From NCBI GenBank assembly GCA_025656675.1, contig JAHXHN010000007.1:5040-69039 (forward strand): 64,000 bases of DNA. Reading direction: 5' to 3'. The notes under the pieces were generated by a model, which ran no database searches, was not told where the DNA came from, and saw only the letters and a program-made list of their open reading frames with translations. Shown piece after piece: positions 1-20,519 of this stretch (its first letter is position 1; every line of letters starts with the position of its first letter). Source of the stretch: Candidatus Thiodiazotropha sp. (ex Codakia rugifera) (GTDB lineage: Bacteria; Pseudomonadota; Gammaproteobacteria; Chromatiales; Chromatiaceae). The position numbers were made by a program, and so were the translations under genes.

Positions 1-433
1 AACAGAACACCGCGTCTAGATCCTCGGTGTTCAGACCGTCGAGCAAGATCCAGTCTTTTTTCTGTACCCGATGGTAGCTGCGTCTGCTGAACCAAGAGTA
101 CAGCAACATACCGGTGGTGATCTTCCACGGCCGTCGTGTGGTGCTGCGATATATCGGGAGATAGAACGGTTTAAGCTTCACCAGATGCGGCGCATTGCGT
201 AACAGATATCTACGCTCCCGGAGACACTCCCGTACCAGTGCAAACTGACCGGTTTCGAGATATCGCAGGCCCCCATGAATAAGCTTGGACGATTTACTCG
301 AGGTGGCACACGCCGCAGACGTGCACTGTTCCAGCAATAACACGCTATAGCCGTGCGCTGCCGCAGCCTGCGCTACACCAGCACCGTGAATGCCTGCGCC
401 GATGACAATAATGTCCCATTCTTGTTCAGTCAT
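1..433 (-). CDS. FAD-dependent glycerol-3-phosphate dehydrogenase (GlpD-like), N-terminal part only; continues beyond the window start
   Basis: Reverse-strand translation from the ATG at 433 reads MTEQEWDIIVIGAGIHGAGVAQAAAAHGYSVLLLEQ..., a classic GxGxxG FAD-binding N-terminus of GlpD-type oxidoreductases. No stop codon before the window edge. The start overlaps the stop of the upstream GDPD gene by 8 nt. Confidence 0.6.
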   Translation of the reverse strand, partial: MTEQEWDIIVIGAGIHGAGVAQAAAAHGYSVLLLEQCTSAACATSSKSSKLIHGGLRYLETGQFALVRECLRERRYLLRNAPHLVKLKPFYLPIYRSTTRRPWKITTGMLLYSWFSRRSYHRVQKKDWILLDGLNTEDLDAVFC

Positions 434-1202
434 TGTTGTTATAGTCATCAGTTGTGTGGTCACATGCACTCTGGCGCAACACATCATGCGCTAACAGCTC
501 GGCGATATGATCGGTCGCGATATAGGAAACACCGCGCGCACCCCAGTCGAGCGCGATCTGTGCATGTTCAACACCATATAACATCCACAGCCAACTACCC
601 GGCCATAGTTCTTGCGTATCGATCTTACGCTGGTTGCATATGAGGAAGTCCGGATGCAGATCTGCTGCATGTTCATAATGCGTATGGTCGTAGCGATGTA
701 GTACCCAGCCCGTACGTAGCTGACTGTGTTGTTTCACATAGGTGATCGCTGCAGCGCTGAACGATATGATGACGCACTGCGTCGCGTACGCACTGACTTC
801 AGCAAGCAAGCGCTGCATCACCCTGTCAACGCTGAAGTGATTGAGGCTCTCTTCCTTGATTTCAATATACGCTGTGAGCGCTGGATACACACGGATGAAG
901 TCGAGCATCTGCTGTAGTGAAGGCACAGGCTCCGGCGCAAGACGCTTGTCAGACCTTTCCACTTCGTACGTACTTATCTGCATACAATCAGCGAGCGTGA
1001 TGTCGAACACACTACGATCGACGCCACAGGTGCGTAACAGTTTGTCATCATGCATCACCACGAAATTTCCATCAGCACACATCTGTACATCGAATTCGAT
1101 ACAGCAGGCATCAGCAGCGACAGCAGCTTGCATGCTGATCAATGTATTTTCAGGATAAGCCGCAGAGTAACCACGGTGTGCGACTAAGCGAGGAATCTTC
1201 AT
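426..1202 (-). CDS. glycerophosphodiester phosphodiesterase (GDPD family)
   Basis: The ORF 426..1322 contains the GDPD signature (LVAHRGYSAAYPENTLISMQAAVAADACCIEFDVQMCADGNFVVMHDD). The internal Met of MKIPRLVAHRGY gives a start at 1202, which forms an ATGA overlap with the stop of the upstream kinase gene. Confidence 0.7.
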   Translation of the reverse strand: MKIPRLVAHRGYSAAYPENTLISMQAAVAADACCIEFDVQMCADGNFVVMHDDKLLRTCGVDRSVFDITLADCMQISTYEVERSDKRLAPEPVPSLQQMLDFIRVYPALTAYIEIKEESLNHFSVDRVMQRLLAEVSAYATQCVIISFSAAAITYVKQHSQLRTGWVLHRYDHTHYEHAADLHPDFLICNQRKIDTQELWPGSWLWMLYGVEHAQIALDWGARGVSYIATDHIAELLAHDVLRQSACDHTTDDYNNND

Positions 1203-2611
1203 ATGTGAGTCAGACACCGTTCGAGATAATCGAGGAAATGCAGGTAGCGTTGCTGTAATGCAGCATCCGTTTGCGGCCGGAACTGTGTTATCTCGGCATG
1301 CTGATGCCAGCCGTGAGGGCACCCGGCCGCCAGCCAGGCTGCTCCGCGTGCAGTGGCTTCGCTGTCATCACTGCGTATCACGCATAAACCGCTCAGATCG
1401 GCAAGCCGCTGACACAGGCCATCAAGTTTCGACAGACCACCACTGACGTGTAACAACGATAGTGCTGATTCACTTTGCATAAGTTTGAGGTTCGACTGCA
1501 CCATGAACAATATACTTTCAATGACACCGACGACACGCGCACCATCATCACTCCTCGCCGTATTGGTGTCTTCATCGATGAAGTGTGGATCGATGTCTGC
1601 GCGCCACCACGGCGATCCCAGACCACCAACACTGTTGAAGAATATTTCAGGTGTTTTCACCGCCTTCAACCAGTTTGGCAGTTGTTGTTCGATCCCTGTG
1701 ATGCCATAACGCTCTGCCAGCCAGGTGAGTGCCGATCCCGCACCGTTGATGGTTGCCTCGCGCACATAACTCACTTCAGACATGCTGGACACGGCGATAC
1801 CAGAGAGCTGCTGTTGTGATACACGGTAGTCATCCATGTGTCGCAATACGAATGCGCCCGTACCAAGATTGACCAGTGCGACTTCGGTCTGGGCAGTGGT
1901 CATGCCGCACAGCGCTGCATTCTGATCGCCAGTGACTGCTGTCACCGCGATTCCATGCTGTTCAAGATCACCATAAGCATGGCGTACGGGTACACACAGC
2001 GGTAACTGCTGCGATGACACGCCAAAGTTTGCACACAATGCGTCTGACCAGTTTAGTCGGTTGATATCGAACAACTGTGTGCGTTGTGCATTGCAATGGT
2101 CAACGACATAAGGTTTCGTATCGAGTAGATGGTAGAGCAGATAGCTCACCAGTGGTGACAACCGGAGATGTGCATCTGCATCTGAGATATGTTGCTGCAG
2201 CCAATGCAGCTTGCTGGCACCATAATGTGGCGACAGCGGTAGTCCCGAGATCTGCTGGATCATCTGCTGCTGCAGCCACAATGTATCGACGAGATCGCTA
2301 CCACGTACATCCTGCCAGCTGAGCGTAGCCGAGCAGGCTTCGCCCGCACTGTTCCAGGCGAGCATGGTAGATCGTTGGGTAGCGATACCGCAGGCTTTTA
2401 TCTGTGAATCTGCGTCGAAACCAGCGACCACTTCAGCTACCACTTGACGCACAGAAGCAAGTATCTCAGTGGCATCCTGTTCGACACGTTGAGCATCGAT
2501 TCTTTGTAGCGAGATGTCACACACTGCGCCACTGAGCACATCACCGTATTCATCGAACAGGATTGCACGGCTGGCGTGCGTACCCTGGTCGATCGCCAGA
2601 TAGTAGTTCAT
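1199..2611 (-). CDS. FGGY-family carbohydrate kinase, glycerol-kinase-like
   Basis: N-terminal motif MNYYLAIDQGTHASRAILFDEYGDVL matches the FGGY / glycerol kinase phosphate-1 motif. Size about 470 aa. In an operon with GDPD and GlpD-like genes. The track ORF starts with TTG at 2635; the ATG at 2611 is preferred. Confidence 0.6.
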   Translation of the reverse strand: MNYYLAIDQGTHASRAILFDEYGDVLSGAVCDISLQRIDAQRVEQDATEILASVRQVVAEVVAGFDADSQIKACGIATQRSTMLAWNSAGEACSATLSWQDVRGSDLVDTLWLQQQMIQQISGLPLSPHYGASKLHWLQQHISDADAHLRLSPLVSYLLYHLLDTKPYVVDHCNAQRTQLFDINRLNWSDALCANFGVSSQQLPLCVPVRHAYGDLEQHGIAVTAVTGDQNAALCGMTTAQTEVALVNLGTGAFVLRHMDDYRVSQQQLSGIAVSSMSEVSYVREATINGAGSALTWLAERYGITGIEQQLPNWLKAVKTPEIFFNSVGGLGSPWWRADIDPHFIDEDTNTARSDDGARVVGVIESILFMVQSNLKLMQSESALSLLHVSGGLSKLDGLCQRLADLSGLCVIRSDDSEATARGAAWLAAGCPHGWHQHAEITQFRPQTDAALQQRYLHFLDYLERCLTHI

Positions 2612-2929
2612 GCGGGTTGACTGTGTTTTGGTCAAGTCATTCCAGATACTTTACTAAGCTCGTTTTCGTAATCCATCGGTGTCCTGCAGCCCCGTGTTGA
2701 TTGCAATAGAAATGTGCTCCCATGTCGGATCGAGACTCCTGATATTATGTATTTGTTTTAGGTGAGTCAGGATACGTTCAGGATTATATACAAGTTTTGG
2801 TGCGGCCCTTCCCTTTACATAAAGCGATAAATATCGCCATACTTATGTTGAATCTGTACTACATGAGGAACCTAAGGTGGACCGATCTTACCCCGCCTCA
2901 TGAAGTTGAATCGCATTGCCGGGATGCCA

Positions 2930-3490
2930 TCACCTAACCCGTTTCGGCACTACCATTGTCAACAAACCATTCCGGAATTGACCACTGGCACGGCTGCTGT
3001 CCACCGCCTCTGGGAGTGTAAAGACTTGTTGCAGGTTACCGAAAAAGGTTTGCCATTGACCGGTGTTCACCTGATCATCTTTAGTCTGGACCGAAATGGT
3101 CAGCACCTGGCCGTCCAATCGCATATCAATGTCATTCGAAGTTACACCTGGCAATCGCATCTGCACCAGGTAATGATCTCCCCTATCCTGTAGATGGGAT
3201 GCGGTGCCTTTGAAATTGCCTCCCCAAGAGGGGATTGCGCCGAAGTACTTGGGACCGTGGAAAGTGTAGAATTGCAATTGCCGATAGAGTTGTTCCTGTA
3301 ACAAGTTCAGATTTCTGATCATATCGGCAGGGTTCGGGCCGTAATAGGGATGATACAGAGGGTATGCATGCCATTGCTGATAAGGAACGGAGGGTGCCTG
3401 TGCCATTAACAGTCCACTAGCCAGCAGCAATGCCATACCAAGAATAATTGCACGTTTTAATGGTTTTCGGTTTCTTTTAATCATGATCAT
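2930..3490 (-). CDS. Hsp20 / alpha-crystallin-domain protein with N-terminal signal peptide (predicted periplasmic)
   Basis: Predicted signal peptide, with a positively charged n-region and hydrophobic core ending ...LLMAQA. An alpha-crystallin domain follows (DRGDHYLVQMRLPGVTSNDIDMRLDGQVLTISVQ...FTLPEAVDSSRASGQFRNGLLTMVVPKR). Lies 29 nt downstream of the stomatin gene on the same strand. Confidence 0.7.
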   Translation of the reverse strand: MIMIKRNRKPLKRAIILGMALLLASGLLMAQAPSVPYQQWHAYPLYHPYYGPNPADMIRNLNLLQEQLYRQLQFYTFHGPKYFGAIPSWGGNFKGTASHLQDRGDHYLVQMRLPGVTSNDIDMRLDGQVLTISVQTKDDQVNTGQWQTFFGNLQQVFTLPEAVDSSRASGQFRNGLLTMVVPKRVR

Positions 3491-3519
3491 CTCAAATATA
3501 TATAGGAAGATTATCCAGA

Positions 3520-4275
3520 TTACGTTTTATCCGTATGTTTCAACAGAGGTTCAAGTAGATCCATCGGTAACGGAAACACCAAGGTATGGCTCTTATCACC
3601 TGCTACTTCAGTCAAGGTCTCCAGGTATCTCAACTGAATGGCCTGTGGTTGTTTAGCTAGAATGGTAGCAGCTTCCACCAGCTTTTGTGCAGCCTGTTCC
3701 TCACCTTCCGCATGGATCACCTTGGCGCGCCTGGCGCGTTCTGCCTCTGCCTGTCGGGCAATGGCGCGGATCATACTGTCATCCAGGTCAACATGTTTTA
3801 TCTCGACATTTGATACCTTGATTCCCCAGGTATCGGTCTGTTGATCGAGTATCTGTCTGACATCATCGTTTAACCGCTCACGCTCAGCTAGCATCTCATC
3901 AAGTTCATGCTGTCCCAATACGGAACGCAATGTGGTTTGAGCCAATTGACTGGTAGCAACCATGTAATCCTCAACCTGAATGATGGCTCTCTCCGGATCC
4001 AATACCCGGAAGTAAACCACTGCATTGACCTTTACCGAGACATTGTCACGTGAGATTACATCCTGTGAGGGAACATCGAGGACAATGGTACGTAAATCGA
4101 CTCTGACGAATTGCTGAATGATTGGAATTATGATAATCAGGCCAGGGCCTTTAACCCGCCAGAAACGGCCCAACATAAAAACCACACCACGTTCATATTC
4201 ACGTAAAATCTTTAGCGCTGAGGCGAGAAATGTTATGATGAAAAAAAAGATAACAGCATAGATATAGAGTGTCAC
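3520..4275 (-). CDS. SPFH / band-7 (stomatin-like, YbbK/QmcA-type) membrane protein
   Basis: N-terminal TM helix followed by an SPFH domain ([26 protein letters not shown]...[25 protein letters not shown]...). GTG start overlapping the NfeD stop (GTGA). Confidence 0.85.
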
Positions 4276-5636
4276 AATAATGTCTCCTTATCGGTTGGCG
4301 TCACTTCCAAAACCAATCCTTCTCTGCCGGTAACCTGTACCGGCTGATCCTTGCGTAACGGCTGCTTCGAGTGTGCTCGCCATACTTCGCCATGCACCCT
4401 TACAGCACCATCACCGGTAAAGTCCTCCACGACAAGGCCTTCACAACTCAGTAGTTCCTCTCGACCACTAACGACAGGCCTATGACGGGATTTGAGGGCC
4501 ATTCCGATAGTGAAAACCAAAATGAATGCACTGGCTACGGCAACTGTCAGAATAAGCGGTAACGAGACTCCAAAACCGGTTTGGTCCGTGTCTACGAGGA
4601 TCAATGAACCAATAACAAAAGCAATTACCCCACCTATACCCAGTGTGCCAAAACTAGGTACAAATGCCTCTGCAATCATCAATGAAAGTCCAAGTAGTAT
4701 CAGGGCAACACCAGCGTAATTTATGGGTAGTACATGAAAAGCATAGAGGGCTAAAAACAGGGAGATAGCCCCTACTGTTCCTGGCACGATTGCCCCGGGG
4801 TTGGCAAATTCGTAGATCAAACCATAAATTCCGAGCAGCATAAGAATATAAGCCAGATTAGGATTGCTGATGATGGAGAGTAACTGACTCTGCCAATCGG
4901 GCATTAGCATTTCCAACTGTAACGCTTTAGTGTCCAGAGTTTTTGTACCAAATGGCAGTTCAACCTGATGACCATCTAGCTTGATAACAAGTGACATAAG
5001 ATCTGTGGCAATATAATCAATGACCTTTTTTTCCAGTGCCTCTTCAGCCGAGAGGCTCGCTGCTTCGCGCACCGCCTGTTCAGCCCAGTCAGCATTACGC
5101 CCCCGTAATCCAGCCAGACTGCGCATGTAGGCGGAGGCATCATTGATGACTTTTCGCTCTTTTGCGTCGCTGGGTGGAGGTGGGTGACTACCCTCCTCCC
5201 CCTCAGAGTCACGGTCACGTATTGGTTTGGGCACACCTCCCAATGTTACGGGTGTTGCTGCACCTAAATTGGTAGCAGGTGCCATTACAGCAATATGACT
5301 GGCATAAAGTATGTAGGTCCCAGCACTCGCGGCTCGGGCGCCGCCTGGGGCAACATAGCCGATGACTGCGACCTGGGAAGCGATGATGCGTTTGATAATG
5401 GCACGCATTGAGGCATCGAGCCCGCCTGGTGTATCCATGCGGAGTACGACAAGCTCGACAGATTGTGACTCAGCTTTTTGGAGTGCACGTTCGATATAGT
5501 CAGCCGTTGCTGGTCCGATCGCTCCGGATATATCCAGGACGAATCCCTTGCGACCGTTTTCATCTGCATGAAGCTGACTCGTTCCACCTAGCAGTAGGCT
5601 CACGGAGAATAGAAGTGATAAGAACACGTTAATCAC
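4272..5636 (-). CDS. NfeD-family membrane-bound ClpP-class serine protease (stomatin operon partner protein)
   Basis: Signal sequence followed by a ClpP-like domain ([21 protein letters not shown]...), multiple TM helices and a C-terminal OB-fold-like tail. Forms the canonical nfeD-stomatin gene pair with a 4-nt overlap. Confidence 0.8.
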
Positions 5637-6074
5637 TGATCACCTCACTGTATTACTTACTCTTATTTTAGTCTCTCAGTGGATCGGCGTTGAATAATTT
5701 GGATATCAGGAATTTATTGGAGTCAGCGAAGAGTTAATATATACATTAACAATAACAGTAAGTTATCAGATTTTATAGATATTTAACATTAAGTATTGTA
5801 ATGACTCGAATCAACGATCTAATCAAAACACCCTCCACATCGATTGTTGAATCTGTTTTTGAAAACCACCCATTCGTGCCGAGACCGGATTCAGCGATTC
5901 GGCGGATCGTTCGGATCCAAGGCATTCGGCATAGTTGGACAACTTAAATATCGAAGTTCATTACACAGGAACACAAATATTATATTGCTGCATCAGTCAC
6001 TACCCGCTATCAAGTGAGTGGTTAATACACGCTTAAACTCAATGATCAGAAAATAACTTAGCCATCACTCTTCA

Positions 6075-6092
6075 CTGTCATACTCCTGTAAC
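6075..6092 (+). promoter_or_regulatory. Candidate Pho box (PhoB binding site) upstream of pstS
   Basis: CTGTCAT-ACTC-CTGTAAC matches the PhoB box consensus CTGTCAT-N4-CTGTCAC at 13 of 14 positions. Lies about 180 nt upstream of the pstS start in a 630-nt AT-rich leader. Coordinates approximate to within 1 nt. Confidence 0.4.
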
Positions 6093-6174
6093 AATAAAAG
6101 AATAAAGTTGTAAAAAATTCGAAATATTCATATTGAGCAACGTGCTGCATCACGACGCATAGGGAGGTTTCACT

Positions 6175-6222
6175 ATGAATATTATTTATAAAACTAAAGA
6201 TAGAAGAACTCGTTGGATTTAA
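6175..6222 (+). other. Tiny ORF (15 codons, MNIIYKTKDRRTRWI) with a strong Shine-Dalgarno in the pstS leader; possible leader peptide or small protein
   Basis: AGGGAGG lies 7 nt upstream of the ATG. No homology is assessable from sequence alone. Confidence 0.15.
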
Positions 6223-6270
6223 GCATTTAAAGCGGGTTATTAAAATTCGAAAATCATTTGAGGATGATCC

Positions 6271-7152
6271 ATGAAAAGAAAATTGTTTAGTGCCATCCCG
6301 TTGGCAACCACTACCCTGTTACTTGCTATAGCAGCGCAAGCTGCAGATCGTACCGTTATTCAGAACAAAGGCTCTGATACCCTGGTTAATGTCGCCCAGG
6401 CATGGGCGGAAGCCTATCGGGATGTCGATGCAAATATCGCAGTGGCTGTTTCCGGAGGGGGGTCCGGTACAGGCATAGCGGCTATGATCAACGGTACTGT
6501 GGATATAGCCAATGCCAGCCGTAAAATGAAATCAAAAGAGGTTAAACTGGCAAAGAAGAAAGGTCAGAATCCCATCGAACATGTGGTTGGTTATGATGCC
6601 CTCGCTGTCTTTATCCATAATGACAATCCGGCTAAATCCTTATCCTATGAACAGCTAAAATCGGTCTTCAGCCGGGGCGGCAAGGCTACAAAATGGTCCC
6701 ATATAGGACTGAAGGTTCCAGGTTGTGATAGCGATGAGATCGTCGTTGTCAGTCGCCAGAACAATTCGGGTACCTATGCCTATTTTAAAAAGGCCGTGCT
6801 TGGCAAGAAAGGCAAGTTTCGCCAAGGAACACTCGATATGCATGGTTCAAAGGATGTCGTGGACCTTGTTGAAAAAACACCTTGCGCTATTGGTTACAGC
6901 GGCCTGGCATACGCCACGGACCATATCAAAATGGCCTGCATTGAAAAAGAGTCCGGAAGTGCGTGTATCAACCCCAGTGTAGAGACTGCCAGCGACCGTA
7001 GTTACCCCATTGCTCGACCACTGTTTATGTATACCAATGGTGAACCCGCAGGGGCGATAAAAATATATCTTGACTGGGTCAAGAGTGATGAGGGTCAGTG
7101 CATTCTTCTGAAGAAGGGATATGCACCAACTCAAGATGTGAACTGCAGTTAA
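6271..7152 (+). CDS. pstS: phosphate ABC transporter substrate-binding protein PstS
   Basis: Signal peptide plus a PstS-type PBP motif (AVSGGGSGTGIAAMINGTVDIANASR). GAGGA RBS upstream. Confidence 0.9.
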   Translation: MKRKLFSAIPLATTTLLLAIAAQAADRTVIQNKGSDTLVNVAQAWAEAYRDVDANIAVAVSGGGSGTGIAAMINGTVDIANASRKMKSKEVKLAKKKGQNPIEHVVGYDALAVFIHNDNPAKSLSYEQLKSVFSRGGKATKWSHIGLKVPGCDSDEIVVVSRQNNSGTYAYFKKAVLGKKGKFRQGTLDMHGSKDVVDLVEKTPCAIGYSGLAYATDHIKMACIEKESGSACINPSVETASDRSYPIARPLFMYTNGEPAGAIKIYLDWVKSDEGQCILLKKGYAPTQDVNCS

Positions 7153-7285
7153 ATCTCCATTTACCTACTGATCAGGTTGAAGGTGCGTAAATTCGGACCT
7201 TTAACCTGACGAACAACTCATTTGCTGAATAGATAAGAATAGAACGGTATCTGCCAGTGACACCGTTTAATGGGGAGTATCAAGA

Positions 7286-8362
7286 ATGTCCCAACTCGAA
7301 GAACGCCTGGAGAGAGACCTTAATAATATCCACGATCGTGTGGCAAAAATGGGGGAGCAGGTCCAGGACGCTGTAAAAAATGCTGTTAATGCCCTTCAAA
7401 CCGGCAATAAAAAGCTTGCCTATGCAACAGTATTGAATGATAACCCGATCAATCGCTGTATGCGTGAGATCGATACAAGATGTCATCGTTTCTTCGCGAT
7501 ACATATACCCAGTGGTGGACATCTGCGCCTGCTCTCTTCAGTAATACGAGCAAATATTGAGCTGGAACGTATTGGTGATTATGCAGTGACTATTGCACGT
7601 GAAGCTGCACAGCTTTCTCAACCGCCAAGCGGAGGGCTTGGCAGAGAACTGGATCGTGTTGCTAATGAAACCATGCTTATGTTGCGGCAAGCCATTAAGG
7701 CATTTACCGAATTCAATGCCGATATTGCGAAAAGCACCATGATTATGGCGAATGAGCTGGAACACAATCTGGATGTGGTCTATACGGAAATGATGGCCAA
7801 TGACGAACGTGGCAAGGTCGAAGAGGTGCTCGCGATCTTTGTCATATTCACCCAATTAAAACGAGTCGCCGATCAGGCGAAAAACCTCTGTGAGGATACT
7901 GTATTTGCAGTCACTGGCGAGCAGAAGGCGCCGAAAATATTCAACATACTGTTTGTCGATGAAGACAACAGTTGTCACAGTCAGTTGGCAGAAGCGATTG
8001 CCAGACAAAACCATCCTCAGTCTGGCAGGTACCGCAGTGCTGGTCGGACGCAGGCAGAATCTATAAATCCAAAACTGAGATCGTTTATGGAAAAACGAGG
8101 TATCGATATCAGCCATACACAGCTGACATCGCTCGAACACCTGACTGCAAAAGAACTTTCGGAACAGCATGTCATCGTCAGTCTGCAAGGTGGCGTGTCT
8201 TCCTATCTACCGCAGATTCCATTTCATACCTCAGCCCTTGAATGGGGCTTGGGTGATATTCCAGAAGAAGAAGACGAGCATGAATATGAGATGCTTTACC
8301 ATGAAATTGCAATCTTGATAAAGGACCTGATGGAGTTGCTTCGCGGGGAAGGAGCAAGTTAA
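7286..8362 (+). CDS. phoU: PhoU-domain phosphate-signalling protein fused to a C-terminal degenerate LMW-PTP/ArsC-like domain
   Basis: Two PhoU repeats over roughly aa 1-215 (DRVAKMGEQVQDAVKNAV..., ERIGDYAVTIAREA..., VADQAKNLCEDTVF). The C-terminal 140 aa align with the LMW-PTP/ArsC P-loop region (ILFVDEDNSCHSQLAEAI versus the canonical FVCTGNSCRSQMAE). The catalytic Cys is replaced by Asp and the P-loop Arg by His. Confidence 0.8.
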   Translation: MSQLEERLERDLNNIHDRVAKMGEQVQDAVKNAVNALQTGNKKLAYATVLNDNPINRCMREIDTRCHRFFAIHIPSGGHLRLLSSVIRANIELERIGDYAVTIAREAAQLSQPPSGGLGRELDRVANETMLMLRQAIKAFTEFNADIAKSTMIMANELEHNLDVVYTEMMANDERGKVEEVLAIFVIFTQLKRVADQAKNLCEDTVFAVTGEQKAPKIFNILFVDEDNSCHSQLAEAIARQNHPQSGRYRSAGRTQAESINPKLRSFMEKRGIDISHTQLTSLEHLTAKELSEQHVIVSLQGGVSSYLPQIPFHTSALEWGLGDIPEEEDEHEYEMLYHEIAILIKDLMELLRGEGAS

Positions 8363-9295
8363 ATGTCGGCAATAAACCCACTAAACAGATCGATGACGAC
8401 CGATTTCGATAGCCGAAACATGGACTGGTATATCGATAAATTCGTTCAGTCTATTGTCTTTGTTGCAGGTATTTCCGCGATTATTTTTATCATCGGTATT
8501 TTTGTTTTTATCACCATGGAGGGTTTGGGTTTTCTGCTTGAGGATTTTAGCTTCAGGGAGTTTTTCCTCTCTCCGTTTTGGGAGCCCTCGGATGAGGATG
8601 CACCTGAGTACGGCATCCTGGCACTTGTGGCGGGTACTGCCAGCGTTACCGGGCTGGCCATGGTTGTCGCCATCCCCTTCTCTCTTGGTGCTGCCATTTT
8701 TATCGGTGAGTTTGCTTCTGGCAAGATGAGAGAGTACCTGAAGGTACTGGTGGAGCTTCTCGCTGCCATTCCTTCGGTTGTATGGGGCTTTATCGGTCTT
8801 TCCATCATGAACCCATTGATCATCGATCTGTTTGATGTACCTGTCGGCCTGAACGTACTCAATGCAGGTATCATCCTTGGATTAATGGCGGCACCTATTA
8901 TGACCTCGATCGCAGAGGATGCCCTTAAGGCAGTACCTGACCGTTATCGAGAGGCTGCCGAAGCATTGGGTGCTACGCGCTGGCAGGTGATATTCAAAAC
9001 CGTACTGCCTGCTGCAAAAAACGGTCTGCTCGGTGCAGTACTGTTGGGTGTGGGACGCGGCTTTGGTGAGACGATGGCAGTGCTCATGGCGACCGGTCAT
9101 GCGGTGAACATTCCAGGTAGCCTGTTCGATCCGGTACGTGCCCTGACGGCAACCATTGCTGCAGAACTGGGAGAAACCGCAGTAGGGTCACCGCACTATC
9201 AGGCACTGTTCACGATTGGCATTTTCCTATTCATCATTACTTTTCTAATCAACCTGACCGCGGATCTCATTGTTCGTGGCATCCGTAAAGGATAA
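8363..9295 (+). CDS. pstC: phosphate ABC transporter permease PstC
   Basis: Polytopic membrane protein carrying the EAA-like permease motif (EALGATRWQVIFKTVLPAAKNGL). The ATG immediately follows the phoU stop. Confidence 0.9.
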   Translation: MSAINPLNRSMTTDFDSRNMDWYIDKFVQSIVFVAGISAIIFIIGIFVFITMEGLGFLLEDFSFREFFLSPFWEPSDEDAPEYGILALVAGTASVTGLAMVVAIPFSLGAAIFIGEFASGKMREYLKVLVELLAAIPSVVWGFIGLSIMNPLIIDLFDVPVGLNVLNAGIILGLMAAPIMTSIAEDALKAVPDRYREAAEALGATRWQVIFKTVLPAAKNGLLGAVLLGVGRGFGETMAVLMATGHAVNIPGSLFDPVRALTATIAAELGETAVGSPHYQALFTIGIFLFIITFLINLTADLIVRGIRKG

Positions 9296-9301
9296 TAAGA
9301 G

Positions 9302-10171
9302 ATGTTTGCTGAATCTGCATTGAATATACGGAACAAGCGTGTCCAGAATCTGTTCCGCATTCTTTTTTTGATGATGACTGTGCTGTTGATCATACCGGTA
9401 GTGATCATTCTCGCTACTCTGGTTGCCAAGGGCGGCAGCATTATCTCCATTGACTTCCTGTTTACCGACCCAACCAATGGTATGACGGCAGGGGGCATCT
9501 TTCCCGCTTTACTTGGAACAGTGTGGATCGTAGCCGTTGCCTTGCTTGCTTCTGTCCCACTGGGTGTTGCTGCAGCGATCTATTTGAATGAATATGCCGG
9601 CGATAATTGGTTCACACGCATTATCCAACTGGCCATCATCAATCTGGCTGGCGTTCCGTCGATTGTGCATGCCCTTTTCGGCGTTGGTGCTTTTGTCATC
9701 TTTTTCGGTTTTGGCACCAGTATTCTGGCGGCCAGTTTAACCCTGGCTATCATGACATTGCCGGTTGTGATTGTCTCAACGCGTGAATCCTTAAGGGCCG
9801 TTCCGCAAGCTTTCAGAGAGGCTTGCTGGAATATGGGTGCTACACGCTGGCAGACCATTCGCAGAGTAGTCCTCCCCAATGCTGTCAGTGGCATCCTGAC
9901 AGGTGTCATCCTGGAAGTGTCACGCACTACCGGGGAAACAGCACCGATCATGTTCACCGGTGCCGCATTCTTTCTGCCATTTCTACCTCAGGGTGTATTT
10001 GATCAAACCATGGCCCTCTCCTTGCATCTGTTCGTAGTCGCCACCCAAGTGCCTGGTGTTCCTGATAACCTGCCATTTGGTGTCGCACTGGTACTGATAG
10101 CCATGGTACTGCTGATGAATAGTATCTCTATTGCGTTCCGTATGTATCTGCGAGGCAAAAAGAAATGGTAG
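9302..10171 (+). CDS. pstA: phosphate ABC transporter permease PstA
   Basis: Polytopic membrane protein with a second permease motif (NMGATRWQTIRRVVLPNAVSGIL). Confidence 0.9.
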   Translation: MFAESALNIRNKRVQNLFRILFLMMTVLLIIPVVIILATLVAKGGSIISIDFLFTDPTNGMTAGGIFPALLGTVWIVAVALLASVPLGVAAAIYLNEYAGDNWFTRIIQLAIINLAGVPSIVHALFGVGAFVIFFGFGTSILAASLTLAIMTLPVVIVSTRESLRAVPQAFREACWNMGATRWQTIRRVVLPNAVSGILTGVILEVSRTTGETAPIMFTGAAFFLPFLPQGVFDQTMALSLHLFVVATQVPGVPDNLPFGVALVLIAMVLLMNSISIAFRMYLRGKKKW

Positions 10172-10980
10172 ATATGAATGTCAACCTGGCTGCAGCCAAT
10201 AAAATTGAAGACCCCGCTTATAGTGCTCCCGTTAAACTCGGTGTCAGTGATCTGACCATCAGGTATGGTGGCACACCAGCGCTGAGTGGGGTCAATCTGG
10301 AAGTACGGGAACATGAAATTTTCGGCATTATCGGACCTGCCAATGCCGGAAAAACCTCTTTTCTTAAAACATTGAATCGAATGGATACTTTCAACACCAA
10401 CATGTCGGTTGAAGGCGAAATTCTGTTCAATGGACTCAATGTGCAAAACCTTAAAAACATCTATGCCTTGCGCAGCCGCATCGGTGTGGTATTCCCCTTG
10501 CCTGTCGGATTACCACTGACAATTTACGAAAACGTCGCACTTTCGCCTCGACTGCGCGGTATAAGGAGAAAAAGCGAACTCGATGTAATCGTTGAACGTT
10601 GCCTGAGCAGGGCTGCACTCTGGGATGAAGTCAAAGACAGACTTGATTCTCTCGGAAGTCTGCTTTCGGGAGGGCAGCAGCAAAGACTGACCATTGCCCG
10701 AGCACTTTCACAGGAACCCGACCTGTTGATGTTGGACGAATTCTCTATCGCGGTAGACCCGGTCACGACCATGCGTATAGAGGATGTTCTGAAAGAGTTG
10801 AAGCATGATATGACGATCATTCTAGTAACCAATCTGGTACAACAAGCGCGCCGCCTGGCAGATCGAACTGCCTTCTTTCTCGAAGGCGAATGTGTGGAAG
10901 TCGGCATTACGGAAGATCTATTTACAGGCGAGGTTCAAGATCAAAGAACCCGAGACTATGTCGAAGGTAAATTCGGCTAA
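10165..10980 (+). CDS. pstB: PstB-like ABC ATPase with canonical LSGGQ signature but noncanonical Walker A (GPANAGKTS) and no H-loop histidine (VTNLVQQ)
   Basis: ABC signature LSGGQQQRL and Walker B LLMLDEF are present. Where the second copy reads IVTHNMAQA, this copy reads LVTNLVQQA. Overlaps the pstA stop. Confidence 0.85.
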   Translation: MVDMNVNLAAANKIEDPAYSAPVKLGVSDLTIRYGGTPALSGVNLEVREHEIFGIIGPANAGKTSFLKTLNRMDTFNTNMSVEGEILFNGLNVQNLKNIYALRSRIGVVFPLPVGLPLTIYENVALSPRLRGIRRKSELDVIVERCLSRAALWDEVKDRLDSLGSLLSGGQQQRLTIARALSQEPDLLMLDEFSIAVDPVTTMRIEDVLKELKHDMTIILVTNLVQQARRLADRTAFFLEGECVEVGITEDLFTGEVQDQRTRDYVEGKFG

Positions 10981-11013
10981 TTCACAAACATTAACCCCTA
11001 TGAAGATCTCAAC

Positions 11014-11814
11014 ATGAATGCCACTGCAAAAGCCATGAGTGAACCGGTAGCGGAATATGCCATTCGAACCAGTAAACTCAATCTCTGGTACGGTACCTTT
11101 CAAGCACTTTTCGATGTTGATCTCAACATCTGCAATGGCATGATTACTTCTTTGATCGGGCCATCAGGTTGCGGGAAATCCACCCTTCTCCGTAGTGTAA
11201 ATCGTATCAATGAAAGACTTGGTTATGTGCGAATCGAGGGCAATATCGATGTCATGGATAAAAACATCTATGACCCTGATGTTGAACTGGTACAGGTACG
11301 CAAGCAGATCGGGATGGTTTTCCAAAGGCCCAATCCACTACCCATCTCGATACGGGATAATATTCTGTTTGGACACAGGATACATAATAAAGACCTTAAG
11401 TCATCGAAAAGCGATCAGAATGAAATTGTTGAATCGGCACTAAAGCAAGTGCTTCTATGGGACAAGGTGAAAGATCGCCTCAATCAAAAGGGAACGGAAC
11501 TCTCCCTGGAAGAACAGCAAAAACTCTGTATTGCCCGACTCCTACCGGTCAAACCCAGCGTATTGTTAATGGATGAGCCCTGCTCAGCACTCGATCCTAA
11601 AGGTACGGCAGCCGTAGAAGAGCTGATCTGGGAACTGCGTGGTGAATACACAATCCTTATTGTCACACATAATATGGCACAAGCCAGACGGGCCAGTGAA
11701 GAGTGTATTTTTATGTTGATGGGTAAAGTGGTCGAACATCAGGCTACGGAAGATCTATTCGTCACACCAGAACAAAAAGAAACTGCCGATTATATTGAGG
11801 GGCGATATGGATAG
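11014..11814 (+). CDS. pstB: PstB ABC ATPase with canonical Walker A, Walker B and H-loop but degenerate signature motif (LSLEEQQKL)
   Basis: Contains GPSGCGKST, LLMDEPCSALDP and IVTHNMAQA, and ends in the PstB-typical C-terminus ...DYIEGRYG. The signature reads LSLEEQQKL where LSGGQQQRL is expected. Confidence 0.9.
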   Translation: MNATAKAMSEPVAEYAIRTSKLNLWYGTFQALFDVDLNICNGMITSLIGPSGCGKSTLLRSVNRINERLGYVRIEGNIDVMDKNIYDPDVELVQVRKQIGMVFQRPNPLPISIRDNILFGHRIHNKDLKSSKSDQNEIVESALKQVLLWDKVKDRLNQKGTELSLEEQQKLCIARLLPVKPSVLLMDEPCSALDPKGTAAVEELIWELRGEYTILIVTHNMAQARRASEECIFMLMGKVVEHQATEDLFVTPEQKETADYIEGRYG

Positions 11815-12703
11815 GATGCGAATTAATCTGATAAGTATAGGTACTTTATTTGTCTGTCTACTCTCAACATCATTGCTTGTGCAGGCACAACGCATCCCAA
11901 TTCAAAACCGCGGATCGGACAGCATGGCGATCGCTGTATCGGCTTGGTCAGAAGCCTACCAGAAAATCGACCCTGAAGTGGGTATTGCCGTATCCGGAGG
12001 CGGTAGTGGAACCGGAATTGCGGCATTGATCAATGGTTTGGTCGATATCGCCAATGCCAGTCGACCACTCACAGCCAAAGAGCTTATGTTGGCAAAGAAA
12101 GCGCAAAGAGATCCCATGGAACATATTGTGGGCTATGATGCAGTTGCCATCTATCTGCACAGGGACAATCCGTTAAAGGCACTTTCATTTGCTCAGTTAG
12201 GTGGCCTATTTGGTCGGGGTGGCGCCACTTCAATATGGACAGACCTTGGAATCGAAGTACCCGGTTGTAAAGATCAGAAGGTCATTCTTGTCAGCAGACA
12301 AAGCAGTTCCGGTACCTATGCCTATTTTCGTAAGAAAATCATAGGAGAAAAATACCGGAATAAATACAAGCCTGAAATATTGAGCACTCAGTCATCCAAG
12401 GATTTGGTGGAACTTGTTGGAAATACACCCTGCGCAATTGGGTACAGTAGTTATGCTTACCAGACACCGGAAGTCAAAGCTGTATGTCTCTTACAGCAAG
12501 AGACTGAGAGTTGTTTGCAGGATGCAGCAGAGCGTGCTTCGGGAGAGACCGCCTACCCTTTGATCAGACCCCTGTACATGTACACAGATGGAGAGCCTAA
12601 CGGTAAGATTAAAGCGTATATTAATTGGGTGCTCAGTAAAGAGGGACAATGCGTTCTGTCAGGGTTGAACTACACGCCTGTACATAAAGAAGATTGTCAA
12701 TAA
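11795..12703 (+). CDS. pstS: second PstS-family phosphate-binding protein (paralog)
   Basis: Signal peptide plus the motif AVSGGGSGTGIAALINGLVDIANASR. About 60% identical to the first pstS by eye. The true start may be an internal Met at 11807 or 11816. Confidence 0.85.
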   Translation: MRGDMDRMRINLISIGTLFVCLLSTSLLVQAQRIPIQNRGSDSMAIAVSAWSEAYQKIDPEVGIAVSGGGSGTGIAALINGLVDIANASRPLTAKELMLAKKAQRDPMEHIVGYDAVAIYLHRDNPLKALSFAQLGGLFGRGGATSIWTDLGIEVPGCKDQKVILVSRQSSSGTYAYFRKKIIGEKYRNKYKPEILSTQSSKDLVELVGNTPCAIGYSSYAYQTPEVKAVCLLQQETESCLQDAAERASGETAYPLIRPLYMYTDGEPNGKIKAYINWVLSKEGQCVLSGLNYTPVHKEDCQ

Positions 12704-12923
12704 ATTCAGCCAGTACCCTAATTATAATAACAAAACTCAGCTTATTACCCTGTTACTTTTCAAACGAATATTTTGATTCTGTCAGCTAGAGTCGGACGGA
12801 TTGGGATCATCTGTTTTTTATATGACAGTTCGGCCGAGATCGCATATTGCCAAGTCAAATAAAAAACCAAGTAATATAGTCTACTATTTGGGTGAGGTAT
12901 CCCCTATTCCCTGGAGGCCAAGC

Positions 12924-13157
12924 ATGAGTAATCAGGTACAGGTCAGTCTGGATCAAGCCGTATATGATCGTCTTCTGCAACTGCAGGTTCCCCCCTACAA
13001 TGACATCAACTCAGTCATTGAGCGTCTGCTTTTTCACACTGGTCGTAAGAGTAACGAGGCCCTACAGCTTGAAGCGGAAGAACGCCATTTCAGTTTTGAA
13101 GAGGAAGTGCAGAGAGAAATGGATGGTGTATACGCTGGTTCCGGCATCTCAACTTAA
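12924..13157 (+). CDS. small hypothetical protein, possible ribbon-helix-helix DNA-binding fold
   Basis: The internal start of ORF 12801..13157 is preceded by GGAGG. The segment VQVSLDQAVYDRLLQLQV...NDINSVIERLL resembles an RHH strand-helix-helix pattern. Weak. Confidence 0.3.
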   Translation: MSNQVQVSLDQAVYDRLLQLQVPPYNDINSVIERLLFHTGRKSNEALQLEAEERHFSFEEEVQREMDGVYAGSGIST

Positions 13158-13302
13158 TCAGAGGGAATTACAAGGCCAGGGAAGGCTTAATAATGTGTGA
13201 TCGGCGATGGCTGGTATTCCCATCAATTATTTTGTGATCGAGAATCGGGTTATCTCATATTGCCTTAAATTATTCCCGGTCTTTTGATCCTTTAATATTT
13301 AA

Positions 13303-13668
13303 TTAATGTTCTCCTTTGGTACGACGTATCCCTGCCAATCGGTTACCCTGTTTCTGGGGACCTCCCTTGGGAAAAATGTCATGTAAATAGCGGTTATTGC
13401 CACGTTCAGGTCCCCAGGTATTTTTAAAGTGCTTAATCATGTCACGAACCTGGGCTTGCACACGGTGTTCTTCATAGTAAGCCTTGATGTAGTAGATCAC
13501 CTCCCAGTGATCCTTAGTCAATACCAAACCCTCCTTTTCAGCCAGGGCCACGGCGAAGGCCTCAGACCACTCATCCATTTTCTGAATATAACCTTCCTGG
13601 TCAGTAGCTACCTTGACACCATTGACATCTAAATATTCAACACGGATTGCGTATGGATTTGTACTCAT
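13303..13668 (-). CDS. DsrC/TusE-family protein lacking both conserved C-terminal cysteines
   Basis: KDHWEVIYYIKAYYEEHRVQAQVRDMIKHFKNTWGPERGNNRYLHDIFPKGGPQKQGNRLAGIRRTKGEH aligns with the DsrC/TusE core. The protein ends without the conserved CxxxxxxxxxxC-terminal cysteines. Lies 66 nt downstream of narI on the same strand. Start taken at the internal Met. Confidence 0.7.
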   Translation of the reverse strand: MSTNPYAIRVEYLDVNGVKVATDQEGYIQKMDEWSEAFAVALAEKEGLVLTKDHWEVIYYIKAYYEEHRVQAQVRDMIKHFKNTWGPERGNNRYLHDIFPKGGPQKQGNRLAGIRRTKGEH

Positions 13669-13734
13669 AGAGACAGCCTCTCGACAGGGTCGTGGGGGAC
13701 TCACGTCCCCCACGGTTTCATCAATTGTTTGTGC

Positions 13735-14433
13735 TTAGTTCATAGGTATCCGTTTGACACGAACAATCTGATAGGCACGACCGAGGTAACTAAACGGTAC
13801 GCTCCAAACATGAACCAGACGGGTAAACGGAAAAATCAGAAACACGGTCATCCCGAAGAATATATGGATCTTGAAAATCGTTGAGACTCCCTGAACCAGA
13901 CTCGGCTCTGCACTCAGGGTGGCCACACTTTTAACCCATTCAGTGAGCACTATCATCTGCGAGACATCACCATGGGAAGCATGACCTGATGAGACGAGAA
14001 TCGTGCTCAGACCCAGCGTGACGGTTACCAACAACCAGCCGATTACAAAGGTATCACGTGTACGACTGGTGGCTTTAATACGCGGGTTGCTGACGCGGCG
14101 ATAAAACAACATGGCGGCACCAACAAGGCACACAATGCCAAAGATGCCGCCAGCATAGATGGCGAGGTACTGATGTGCAACATCTGAGATGCCCATAGCG
14201 AGAAACCAGCTGTGTGGCAACAGCATACCGGCCAGATGACCAAAGAAGATACCCAGTATACCTATGTGGAACAGGTTACTGGCCAGGCGCATATTTTTAT
14301 TGCTGAGCAGTTGGCTGGAGTCGGTCTTCCATGTGTACTGCTCACGATCAAAGCGAATCCAGCTTCCCAGAAGAAAAATGGTCCCTGCCAGATAGGGGTA
14401 GGCTCCGAAAATAAAGTCATGAAGTGTCATCAT
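13735..14433 (-). CDS. narI: respiratory nitrate reductase gamma subunit NarI
   Basis: Five-TM cytochrome b with a NarI-like N-terminus (MMTLHDFIFGAYPYLAGTIFLLGSWIRFDREQYTWKTDSSQLL). Confidence 0.9.
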   Translation of the reverse strand: MMTLHDFIFGAYPYLAGTIFLLGSWIRFDREQYTWKTDSSQLLSNKNMRLASNLFHIGILGIFFGHLAGMLLPHSWFLAMGISDVAHQYLAIYAGGIFGIVCLVGAAMLFYRRVSNPRIKATSRTRDTFVIGWLLVTVTLGLSTILVSSGHASHGDVSQMIVLTEWVKSVATLSAEPSLVQGVSTIFKIHIFFGMTVFLIFPFTRLVHVWSVPFSYLGRAYQIVRVKRIPMN

Positions 14434-14446
14434 TTCGATTCTCTCC

Positions 14447-14962
14447 TCAGGCGGCCTGGGCTAAAGTGCCACGATTTTCAACGATACGAATCAGCTGTGC
14501 ATAGGGACTCTCCTTCTTCTCCAGGTTCTCCGCCAGCACTTTCAGTACTTTGACGGCGTCTCCCAGAAAAACCCGCGCCTGCATATCGTCCAGGGTCGAT
14601 ACAAACTCAAGTATCAGCGGCAGATAGTCGGGGATTTCACCTTTCTCCAACTCCAACCCCATGCCCTTGTAATACTCTGACAGGTCAATCAGGGCCGGCC
14701 CACGTCCTCGATCGTCACCGAACAGGTGGTGAGTCAGATGCAGATCGTGCTCTGGCGTCATATCGAAGGTTTGTACATAAATCCCCTGCAGTCCGGTCAG
14801 ATCATGTGATTGCATCCAGGTTATTAGCTGCATCAAAGTATCTCGCTCCTGCTCACTGATACCCGGATCTCCTTTTAACAGGCTGATGATCTCCGGCATA
14901 TTCTCCAGTAACACTTCATCTGGATAATCGAGCAGCCGCGCCAAAATAGTGTAGATATGCAT
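14447..14962 (-). CDS. narJ: nitrate reductase molybdenum cofactor assembly chaperone NarJ
   Basis: NarJ/TorD-family sequence lying between narH and narI. Confidence 0.85.
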   Translation of the reverse strand: MHIYTILARLLDYPDEVLLENMPEIISLLKGDPGISEQERDTLMQLITWMQSHDLTGLQGIYVQTFDMTPEHDLHLTHHLFGDDRGRGPALIDLSEYYKGMGLELEKGEIPDYLPLILEFVSTLDDMQARVFLGDAVKVLKVLAENLEKKESPYAQLIRIVENRGTLAQAA

Positions 14963-14976
14963 GAATTTTCTCCTGC

Positions 14977-16524: not shown

Positions 16525-16617
16525 AATTTGTTCCTCAAAATTCTTTCGCTGCCGGTGGCATGGGAGTGAGGGCTATCATCAGCCCCCCCTATTCCCTGTG
16601 CCGTTACGATCAAAAAC

Positions 16618-20367: not shown

Positions 20368-20519
20368 CTGTTTTTTCTCCCTGGGGACAAGCTGTATCAA
20401 TAACAACAAGCCCCACGTTTGTTAGGATCGGATGAATCCGCCAAGGCCTCCTGGGGGGGGTGAAATCGCCTTGTTCATTTCTGCAGATTCATCCGAAAAC
20501 TGTTTTCTATCAATTCACA

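Follow-up and report, generated by a model that had tools for sequence, protein, structure and literature searches.

The pst locus of Candidatus Thiodiazotropha sp. (ex Codakia rugifera) raises the question of what a PhoU protein may do with an additional domain which resembles an arsenate reductase and from which the catalytic residues have disappeared. The locus lies in a stretch of 64,000 nucleotides (nt) taken from contig JAHXHN010000007.1 (positions 5,040 to 69,039 of the forward strand); this whole stretch is called the window here and all coordinates refer to it unless a locus is named. The initial annotation, made from the sequence alone, described the gene at 7286-8362 as PhoU fused to a degenerate domain of the low-molecular-weight (LMW) protein tyrosine phosphatase/ArsC fold. 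The fusion of PhoU with an ArsC-fold domain at 7286-8362 is confirmed as genuine and lies far beyond chance, and the added domain is predicted to be a pseudoenzyme, for which a docking or regulatory role on an unusual transporter ATPase is tentatively preferred. The parts of the fused gene are the following (aa, amino acids; P-loop, phosphate-binding loop; HMM, hidden Markov model).

7286..8362, + strand: fused phoU gene (358 aa), PhoU plus predicted ArsC-like pseudoenzyme domain (Pfam, NCBIfam, homologues, structural model)
7286..7927, + strand: PhoU domain, aa 1-214, six-helix bundle with two PhoU repeats (TIGR02135, Foldseek)
7928..8362, + strand: ArsC-like (LMWPc fold) domain, predicted pseudoenzyme, aa 215-358 (PF01451, profile, Foldseek)
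7958..7981, + strand: degenerate P-loop D225-E-D-N-S-C-H-S232, equivalent to C10-T-G-N-S-C-R-S17 of ArsC (HMM alignment to 1jl3)

The proposed fusion is agreed upon by Pfam, NCBIfam, profile comparison with solved structures and the AlphaFold2 model compared by Foldseek. In the N-terminal half two PhoU repeats are recognised by PF01895 with an expectation value (E) of 5.7e-23, and TIGR02135 (phoU_full) is passed with 134.1 bits against a cut-off of 130.25; the enterobacterial PhoU equivalog NF008332 is not reached by the fused protein (92 against a cut-off of 342). The AlphaFold2 model of the 358-aa protein (mean predicted local distance difference test score 86.2, predicted template modelling score 0.72) consists of a helical bundle (aa 3-210) and an alpha/beta domain (aa 219-353), and its PhoU half is placed by Foldseek, run against the PDB, on PhoU of Pseudomonas aeruginosa (4q25) with a template modelling (TM) score of 0.93 and a root-mean-square deviation (rmsd) of 1.5 Å. 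This half passes as a member of the PhoU family, the exceptions being its operon position and one motif. The first ExxxD motif is preserved without variation as E94-R-I-G-D98; in the subclade of the window protein the second is K192-R-V-A-D196, Lys192 standing in place of the acidic residue, and it begins with Glu in a Verrucomicrobia clade described below and in about half of the diverse representatives of the family. In addition, the Asp of the canonical PhoU 'DLR' motif is replaced by His79 (codon 7520-7522). A GGGGAG ribosome-binding site is located 8 nt 5' of the ATG of the fused gene.

The C-terminal domain (C-domain) passes PF01451 (LMWPc) over aa 221-302 with 28.8 bits, the gathering cut-off being 23.2. 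The ArsC models of NCBIfam match it over its whole length (E 2e-13 to 3e-12) with scores far under their cut-offs; for TIGR02691, the thioredoxin-type ArsC, 46.8 bits were obtained where 174.3 are demanded. When a profile of 21 C-domains was compared with solved structures, the whole domain was covered by 3t38 (E 4e-9) and 1jl3 (E 6e-9), and all structures matched, down to E 8e-5, were arsenate reductases. The modelled C-domain superimposes on ArsC of plasmid pI258 (1jf8) with a TM score of 0.87, an rmsd of 2.1 Å and 25% identity (Foldseek), the Tyr/Arg phosphatases Wzb and YwlE being further away (TM 0.70-0.74). The relationship with the LMW phosphatase/ArsC fold is found by domain search as had been supposed, and within that fold the C-domain descends from a thioredoxin-type arsenate reductase.

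In the HMM alignment of the C-domain to ArsC of Bacillus subtilis (1jl3), Cys10 of ArsC corresponds to Asp225 and Arg16 to His231, exactly as the initial annotation had assigned them for this protein, and Asn13, Ser14, Cys15 and Ser17 are kept. Gly12 has become Asp, Cys82 has become Gln and Cys89 Leu or Tyr, with no Cys conserved at these places in any fused clade. The equivalent of Asp105 is not conserved and the general acid is gone; the sequence 'WGLGDIP' of the window protein is not a conserved DP motif in its clade. Because the catalytic residues are missing, reductase or phosphatase chemistry of the known type is not expected, and the early opinion that such chemistry is unlikely, based on the lost Cys and Arg, is supported. 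The C-domain may be regarded as a pseudoenzyme from which neither arsenate reduction nor dephosphorylation is to be expected. It falls short of everything that defines a functional ArsC or LMW phosphatase, and judging from its residues the fitting name would be ArsC-like or pseudoenzyme, not arsenate reductase or phosphatase.

The loss of the nucleophile is general for the family. Over 321 aligned full-length homologues the Cys10 position is occupied by Asp in 310 and by Glu in 7, and by Cys in none, which means that homologues with a retained catalytic Cys/Arg pair were not encountered. Asp stands there in 119/119 close homologues, in 72 of the 82 full-length diverse representatives (Glu in 7) and in 119 of the 130 representatives that cover the loop (Glu in 7). 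The Arg16 position is variable: Gln 39, Leu 36, Lys 23 and His 14 were counted in the 119 close homologues, mostly Leu and Ala in the 82 diverse representatives, and Leu 60, Ala 19 and Arg 5 in the 130. The exchange of the P-loop Arg for His is therefore true for the window protein but not a conserved replacement, being specific to the nearest Thiodiazotropha relatives (14/119), and His231 would be a local variant and not a functional substitute. In the close relatives D225, E226, D227 and N228 are invariant or nearly so and form an acidic loop, D-E-D-N. In the wider clade the loop positions 11-17 vary freely, N13 and S17 are often lost, and one-residue deletions of the loop occur in 4 of the 130 representatives. 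The other strongly conserved positions of the C-domain (F223, A235, the SAG motif, P312-F313, W320 and the C-terminal helix) seem for the most part to determine the fold, the SAG motif and the Trp being common to fused C-domains and true ArsCs. The initial annotation had also assumed a retained oxyanion-binding P-loop; this does not hold for the window protein, where the Arg16 position is variable and usually hydrophobic in the relatives, Gly12 is replaced, the loop is acidic and its conservation across the clade is poor.

The same fusion was found widely in other genomes, by which a sequencing artefact is ruled out. The closest homologues, with 94% identity, belong to Candidatus Thiodiazotropha, sulfur-oxidising symbionts of lucinid clams. 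More than 120 clusters of full-length homologues (354-368 aa, 59-94% identity) came out of the homologue search, and for most of them both Pfam domains are on record as precomputed matches. When 1.84 billion cluster representatives (50% identity) were searched with a profile, 269 matches at E <= 1e-10 were obtained, and among the best 150 of these 269 nearly all were proteins of 350-366 aa with the domain at about 215-360, or fragments. In a scan of one genome per species 129 matches were confirmed, the carriers being Ca. Thiodiazotropha, Sedimenticola and other Sedimenticolaceae, endosymbionts of the tubeworms Lamellibrachia and Escarpia, and many uncultured Gammaproteobacteria; more distant members of the fusion are found in Ca. 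Accumulibacter propinquus and in a metagenome-assembled genome (MAG) of Deltaproteobacteria. Against the four closest loci the C-domain has a ratio of nonsynonymous to synonymous substitution rates (dN/dS, Nei-Gojobori) of 0.09-0.11, and the PhoU half one of 0.05-0.06. Both halves are under purifying selection, with the C-domain changing roughly twice as fast, and a value of 0.09-0.11 indicates that the pseudoenzyme domain, too, is kept by selection.

The fusion architecture is already visible in public precomputed Pfam tables, and the public labels give 'phosphate signaling complex protein PhoU' for the full proteins and 'protein-tyrosine-phosphatase' or 'arsenate reductase' for the fragments. 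In the literature searches, which included papers on Thiodiazotropha gene expression and on PhoU of Accumulibacter, no description of a PhoU-ArsC-like fusion was found. The protein is rated here as an uncharacterised PhoU subtype, together with an uncharacterised asymmetric subtype of the Pst transporter. Some of the loci deserve separate mention. The operon of the Ca. Accumulibacter propinquus MAG (L081, 6360-11914) is the same, and its PstC and PstA reach up to 80-90% identity to those of the window; several of its genes, including the fused phoU, are frameshifted, which could be assembly error or decay, and such high identity between members of different orders may be a sign of horizontal transfer. 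Two MAGs labelled 'Halobacteria archaeon' (L074, L075) carry an operon of gammaproteobacterial type with a C-domain 50% identical to that of the window, and probably represent a mislabelled or contaminated bin. Two separate pst operons with fused phoU (L036 and L053) are present in one MAG, Pseudomonadota MAG113 (JBDLJX01).

A second clade of the fusion was found through a metagenome scan seeded with PstB1, an ATPase subunit of the same operon; the fused PhoU proteins of its loci L105 and L113 are only about 30% identical to that of the window. The homologue search started from one second-clade protein returned 120 further clusters of about 365 aa, with PF01895 in all and PF01451 on record in all but two. 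The named members belong to Verrucomicrobia (subdivision 3, SCN 57-15) and Methylomirabolita. Fused genes of this clade were located as follows.

L113, 2897-3991: fused phoU of the second clade
L105, 489-1625: fused phoU of the second clade
L168, 9001-10098: fused phoU of the second clade

The loop of the 120 second-clade proteins has the form F-[IVL]-D-[ED]-H-N-[SAH]-C-R-S-Q-M-A, with Asp at the nucleophile position in 119, N13 in 116, C15 in 118, Arg16 in 96 and S17 in 119. The motif L-D-W-S-x-P-D-P keeps the DP acid of ArsC; Cys82 and Cys89 are absent. With the thioredoxin-type ArsC model TIGR02691 the second clade reaches 65-75 bits, compared with 46.8 for the window protein and 19.5 at most for other members from Gamma- and Deltaproteobacteria; with the PhoU model TIGR02135 the scores are 162-171, 134 and 125-141, respectively. 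The second clade is called less derived because of these higher scores against both parental models. His in place of the 'DLR' Asp is common to both fused clades (113/119 close homologues, 60/82 diverse representatives and 99/120 second-clade proteins), and the Asp is kept in PhoU of Escherichia coli and in the unfused PhoU of L114, which lies beside an asymmetric PstB pair. The His of 'HLR' could be a derived trait that the members of the fusion lineage have in common, and its presence in both clades points to a single origin of the fusion. Judged from model scores and shared motifs, the Verrucomicrobia-type state may be taken as near ancestral, the window lineage having probably degenerated further. 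In L168 the fused phoU is closely preceded by arsenic-resistance genes (3924-7697), namely arsD, arsA and the gene of an ACR3-like (SBF) carrier; a link with arsenic was considered and dropped, as ars genes do not adjoin the operon in L169 or L170.

The fused gene belongs to the following operon in the window.

6271..7152, + strand: pstS, periplasmic phosphate-binding protein of the TIGR02136 type (PF12849 E 3.6e-45; TIGR02136 235 bits against 206.6)
8363..9295, + strand: pstC, permease, start abutting the phoU stop (TIGR02138 278.9 bits against 196)
9302..10171, + strand: pstA, permease (TIGR00974 264.5 bits against 193)
10165..10980, + strand: pstB1, divergent ATPase subunit (alignment to E. 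coli PstB; TIGR00972 274.7 bits, under 343.2)
11014..11814, + strand: pstB2, ATPase subunit with degenerate signature (TIGR00972 324.3 bits, under 343.2)
11795..12703, + strand: second pstS paralogue, overlapping the end of pstB2 (PF12849 E 5.4e-34; TIGR02136 185.7 bits, under cut-off)

The order pstS - fused phoU - pstC - pstA - pstB1 - pstB2 is identical in 80/80 genome loci wherever the contig allows, so that the position of phoU between pstS and pstC instead of at the operon end, noted at the outset as atypical, is confirmed and conserved. It is found also in the distant clade members L081-L087, where phoU runs right up to the pstC start or overlaps it; in the window the TAA stop at 8360-8362 is followed directly by the pstC ATG at 8363. 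Fused phoU is never the last gene: it lies between pstS and pstC (80/80) or, in the Verrucomicrobia clade, before pstS (L105, L113, L168-L170). In every locus examined it is placed inside a pst operon. In this arrangement fused phoU is translationally coupled to pstC and an integral part of the Pst transporter operon. No further PhoU, ArsC-like gene or PstB was found elsewhere in the 64-kb window. The second pstS paralogue was seen, among the 80 loci, only in the two closest relatives (L001 and L002).

The two ATPase subunits are only 33-39% identical to each other (BLASTP). PstB1 has an intact LSGGQ signature, a Q-loop in which Gln is replaced by Pro and an H-loop in which His is replaced by Asn, and its Walker A reads GPANAGKTS as compared with GPSGCGKST in E. 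coli PstB. PstB2 has canonical Walker A, Walker B, Q-loop and H-loop, with LSLEEQQKL instead of the LSGGQ signature. These complementary defects are kept in 63 PstB1 and 62 PstB2 orthologues, in the distant loci and in Verrucomicrobia. A PstB1/PstB2 dimer would then have one consensus ATP site, composed of the catalytic side of PstB2 and the signature of PstB1, and one degenerate site. In about 50 loci with a single pstB from the same metagenome scan, pstSCAB is followed by an unfused PhoU of about 220 aa and the fusion occurs in none. The loci of the PstB1 type with enough upstream sequence carry the fusion, with exceptions such as L114. Wherever the flanks of a fused PhoU were examined, the operon has the asymmetric ATPase; the reverse is not strict.

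Co-evolution within the operon was examined by partial correlations of pairwise distance matrices from 56 complete operons, with 300 subsamples. The C-domain is correlated with its own PhoU half (0.46), with PstB1 (0.34, range 0.23-0.44) and with PstB2 (0.12), and the PhoU half is correlated with PstB1 at 0.09. The value for C-domain and PstB1 exceeds that for C-domain and PstB2 in 94% of the subsamples and that for PhoU half and PstB1 in 99.7%.

It is tentatively proposed, with limited confidence, that the C-domain, without being catalytic, works as a regulatory or docking module linked with the asymmetric ATPase. According to this proposal the PhoU half would bind the cytoplasmic face of the transporter and throttle phosphate import as elsewhere, and would relay a signal to PhoR where PhoR is present, gating of the transporter and signalling to PhoR being the functions given to PhoU in the enterobacterial model (PMC9239213). 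The ArsC-like half would anchor or orient PhoU on the asymmetric ATPase dimer, most likely at the PstB1 side, and the Asp conserved in place of the nucleophile may hold the fold together by mimicking the thiolate or by capping the P-loop and helix. In the second clade the loop with Arg may bind cytoplasmic phosphate, a capacity probably lost or changed in the window lineage. There are observations which weigh against the proposal. The locus L114 has an asymmetric PstB pair and an unfused PhoU after pstB2, and therefore the C-domain is not obligatory for this transporter type. The co-evolution signal between C-domain and PstB1, which speaks for docking, is weak and indirect and could reflect shared rate variation instead of contact. 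The strong conservation of D-E-D-N in the close relatives suggests that the loop has a specific task of its own there, for instance the binding of a cation or of a basic residue of a partner; this conservation is not explained by pure docking or capping and leaves room for a cation-dependent site.

The alternative closest to the initial annotation is a phosphate or arsenate sensor, in which the P-loop cradles a tetrahedral oxyanion and phosphate occupancy alters PhoU gating or PhoR signalling. It can be said in its favour that the domain derives from an oxyanion-binding enzyme, that the thiolate-mimicking acidic residue is near universal, and that the second clade keeps N13, C15, Arg16, S17 and the DP motif, a set whose retention would be difficult to understand if no ligand were bound. 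The affinity of the P-loop of LMW phosphatases and ArsC for phosphate or sulphate is millimolar, and cytoplasmic phosphate lies in the same range. In the clade of the window protein, however, Arg16 is lost, mostly in favour of Leu, Ala, Gln or Lys, Gly12 is replaced, the loop of close relatives contains three acidic residues, and the wider clade lacks a constant N13 or S17 and includes members with loop deletions. R254, which follows the SAG motif and is Arg in 108/119 close relatives, might substitute for Arg16, with which it never occurs together. This relocated Arg ('SAGR') was rejected as a candidate: a comparison of the two large clades gives a perfect anticorrelation with Arg16, but this relation is confounded with the clades, and Arg or Lys is found there in 25/81 diverse representatives. 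Sensing by the window protein is considered rather unlikely for these reasons. The suggested phosphate-sensing module survives in part, since sensing through the loop seems plausible for the second clade, which has Arg in 96/120 proteins and the DP motif, and phosphate binding seems plausible for the ancestral form of the fusion, while in the window protein both remain doubtful. A wider version would make the whole fusion family a direct cytoplasmic phosphate sensor, the Asp-bearing P-loop of the former ArsC binding millimolar phosphate and switching off the importer through PhoU. Here the loop would be intact, with Arg, in the second clade and remodelled into an acidic one in the Thiodiazotropha clade, possibly with a relocated Arg or a metal, and the degenerate site of PstB1/PstB2 would be a dedicated regulatory site of the importer; this extension, too, stays on the unlikely side.

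The acidic loop might also bind Mg2+ or Mn2+, alone or bridging phosphate, with the cation replacing the lost Arg, which would amount to a sensor of another chemistry. PhoU proteins have been reported to bind metals, and the sequence hhhh-D-x-D-x-S at the end of the first strand resembles, and no more than resembles, the metal-binding acidic clusters of Rossmann-like folds for phosphoryl transfer. The near invariance of D225, E226, D227 and N228 in close homologues fits such a site; the second and third acidic residues are not kept in the wider family (position 12 is Glu in 58 and position 13 is Asp in 36 of the 130 representatives), and a metal site is judged improbable. A catalytic motif of the haloacid dehalogenase (HAD) type, Asp-x-Asp-x-Ser, was dropped on the same count, its second Asp being kept in close relatives only. 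Of very low probability is that the domain is still an enzyme or a phospho-acceptor, with Asp225 as a nucleophile forming an acyl-phosphate in a phosphatase or a receiver-like switch. Such a role would agree with the conserved Asp and with the Arg and DP acid kept by the second clade, but the window protein has no Arg, general acid or loop Gly, the loop varies in sequence and length across the clade, and no precedent was found in the literature. Finally, the domain could be a functionless relic or structural appendage, fused once and kept only because its removal destabilises PhoU; the loss of all catalytic residues, the faster evolution compared with the PhoU half and the fact that similarity to the ArsC model is undetectable in some members are what one would see in this case. 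A dN/dS of about 0.1, the strong conservation of lineage-specific motifs and the presence of the complete domain in several phyla, where none of the hundreds of full-length proteins listed has it truncated, make it an improbable explanation as well.

Upstream of the operon and in the spacer before the fused gene two types of putative regulatory elements are present.

6075..6092, + strand: Pho-box-like direct repeat CTGTCATACTCCTGTAAC, 196 nt upstream of the pstS start (12/14 against CTGTCAT-N4-CTGTCAT)
7172-7209 and 7242-7268, + strand: two stable RNA hairpins in the pstS-phoU spacer, with no T-run (folding)

A Pho-box match of at least 12/14 upstream of pstS was found in 21/67 related loci as compared with 9/1600 random windows of 450 nt, and in most Thiodiazotropha loci the site has a similar position, -165 to -204. 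Binding of PhoB to the site is predicted, and in the distant relative L085 phoB-phoR lie directly upstream of pstS. The spacer at 7172-7268 folds with -41.2 kcal/mol (z -3.7), and 0/200 shuffles fold as well. No plus-strand terminator-like site was found in the pstS-phoU spacer and no RNA family was matched in an Rfam search of 5500-13400; the hairpins may play a role in stability or processing of the mRNA, which would fit a differential stability of the pstS message. The neighbourhood of the operon is made up, on the minus strand upstream (426-5636), of genes for a GDPD phosphodiesterase, an FGGY sugar kinase, Hsp20, an SPFH/Band 7 protein and NfeD, and on the minus strand downstream (13303-20409) of genes for a DsrC-like protein and a respiratory nitrate reductase of the narGHJI type. 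The open reading frame of 118 aa after the second pstS (12801-13157) has no Pfam match. In the locus of a distant member (L082, 1-7000 and 12551-16263) a phosphate island comprises ppk1, Usp, an Na/Pi cotransporter-PhoU fusion, CHAD, ppk2 and His_Phos_1. A gene of about 400 aa with a faint ATP-cone match adjoins the operon in three loci (L082, L083 at 4204-5394 and L084 at 220-1410).

With the PhoU proteins of E. coli, Salmonella and P. aeruginosa the fused protein shares the six-helix bundle of two repeats, the pst operon and the Pho-box-like site, and in one relative also the adjacent phoBR. It differs from them in the extra C-terminal domain of 140 aa, in its low identity to E. coli PhoU (24-28%), in the His at the 'DLR' Asp and the Lys starting the second ExxxD motif, and in a gene position between pstS and pstC with coupling to pstC, whereas classical phoU is the last gene. 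Residues of enterobacterial PhoU which contact PhoR or PstB are A147, R148 and Q120 (PMC9239213). Mapping of the contacts A147, R148, Q120 and R184 on the fused protein proved uninformative, these residues not being conserved even in unfused distant PhoUs. The C-domain has in common with ArsC of Staphylococcus aureus pI258 and B. subtilis the fold, the order of secondary structures, SAG, N13, S14, C15, S17 and the HW strand motif; in contrast to ArsC it is fused to PhoU, lies outside an ars operon and has Cys10, Gly12, Arg16, Cys82, Cys89 and Asp105 replaced or absent. The LMW Tyr/Arg phosphatases (Wzb, YwlE, bovine LMW protein tyrosine phosphatase) belong to the same superfamily, as the passed LMWPc gathering score and the position of the P-loop indicate, but are structurally more remote (TM 0.70-0.74), and their C-X5-R motif and DP acid are absent from the C-domain. 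Inactive phosphatase folds of the STYX, rhodanese and Cdc25-like types, in which the active-site Cys is replaced, often by Asp, are known to be reused as regulatory or binding modules; their fold family is other than that of the ArsC-like C-domain. For a bacterial pseudoenzyme of ArsC fold joined to a transporter regulator, the literature searches brought up no example.

Operons for Pst in which two pstB genes stand side by side are also known from Firmicutes (PstB1/PstB2 of Enterococcus faecalis, PstBA/PstBB of B. subtilis). The E. faecalis proteins are 60% identical with identical canonical motifs (PMC12096839), and differ in this respect from the much more divergent window pair with its complementary defects. 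A cytoplasmic regulatory module attached to an importer or a regulator is likewise found in Na/Pi cotransporter-PhoU fusions (PF02690 with PF01895) and in the C-terminal domains of MalK, MetN and ModC. The partner domains and the point of attachment are different there, and no homology of the C-domain to those regulatory domains was seen.

PhoU forms a bridge between PstB and PhoR, and to our knowledge the signal sensed by PhoU, and the way in which phosphate is perceived by the Pst-PhoU-PhoR complex, are still unresolved in the field. A natural fusion of PhoU with a former oxyanion enzyme offers an experimental handle on phosphate perception, consisting of a soluble domain of 140 aa, two natural versions of it, with and without the Arg, and a transporter variant with unequal ATP sites. 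The carriers are ecologically important and include sulfur-oxidising symbionts of lucinid clams and tubeworms, marine and sediment Gammaproteobacteria and soil and freshwater Verrucomicrobia; Ca. Accumulibacter is a polyphosphate accumulator whose phosphate regulation matters for wastewater treatment. The labels in current use hide the fusion architecture and can mislead metabolic reconstructions of such organisms. If the whole fusion family did sense phosphate directly, it would provide the first molecular answer to what PhoU-type regulators sense.

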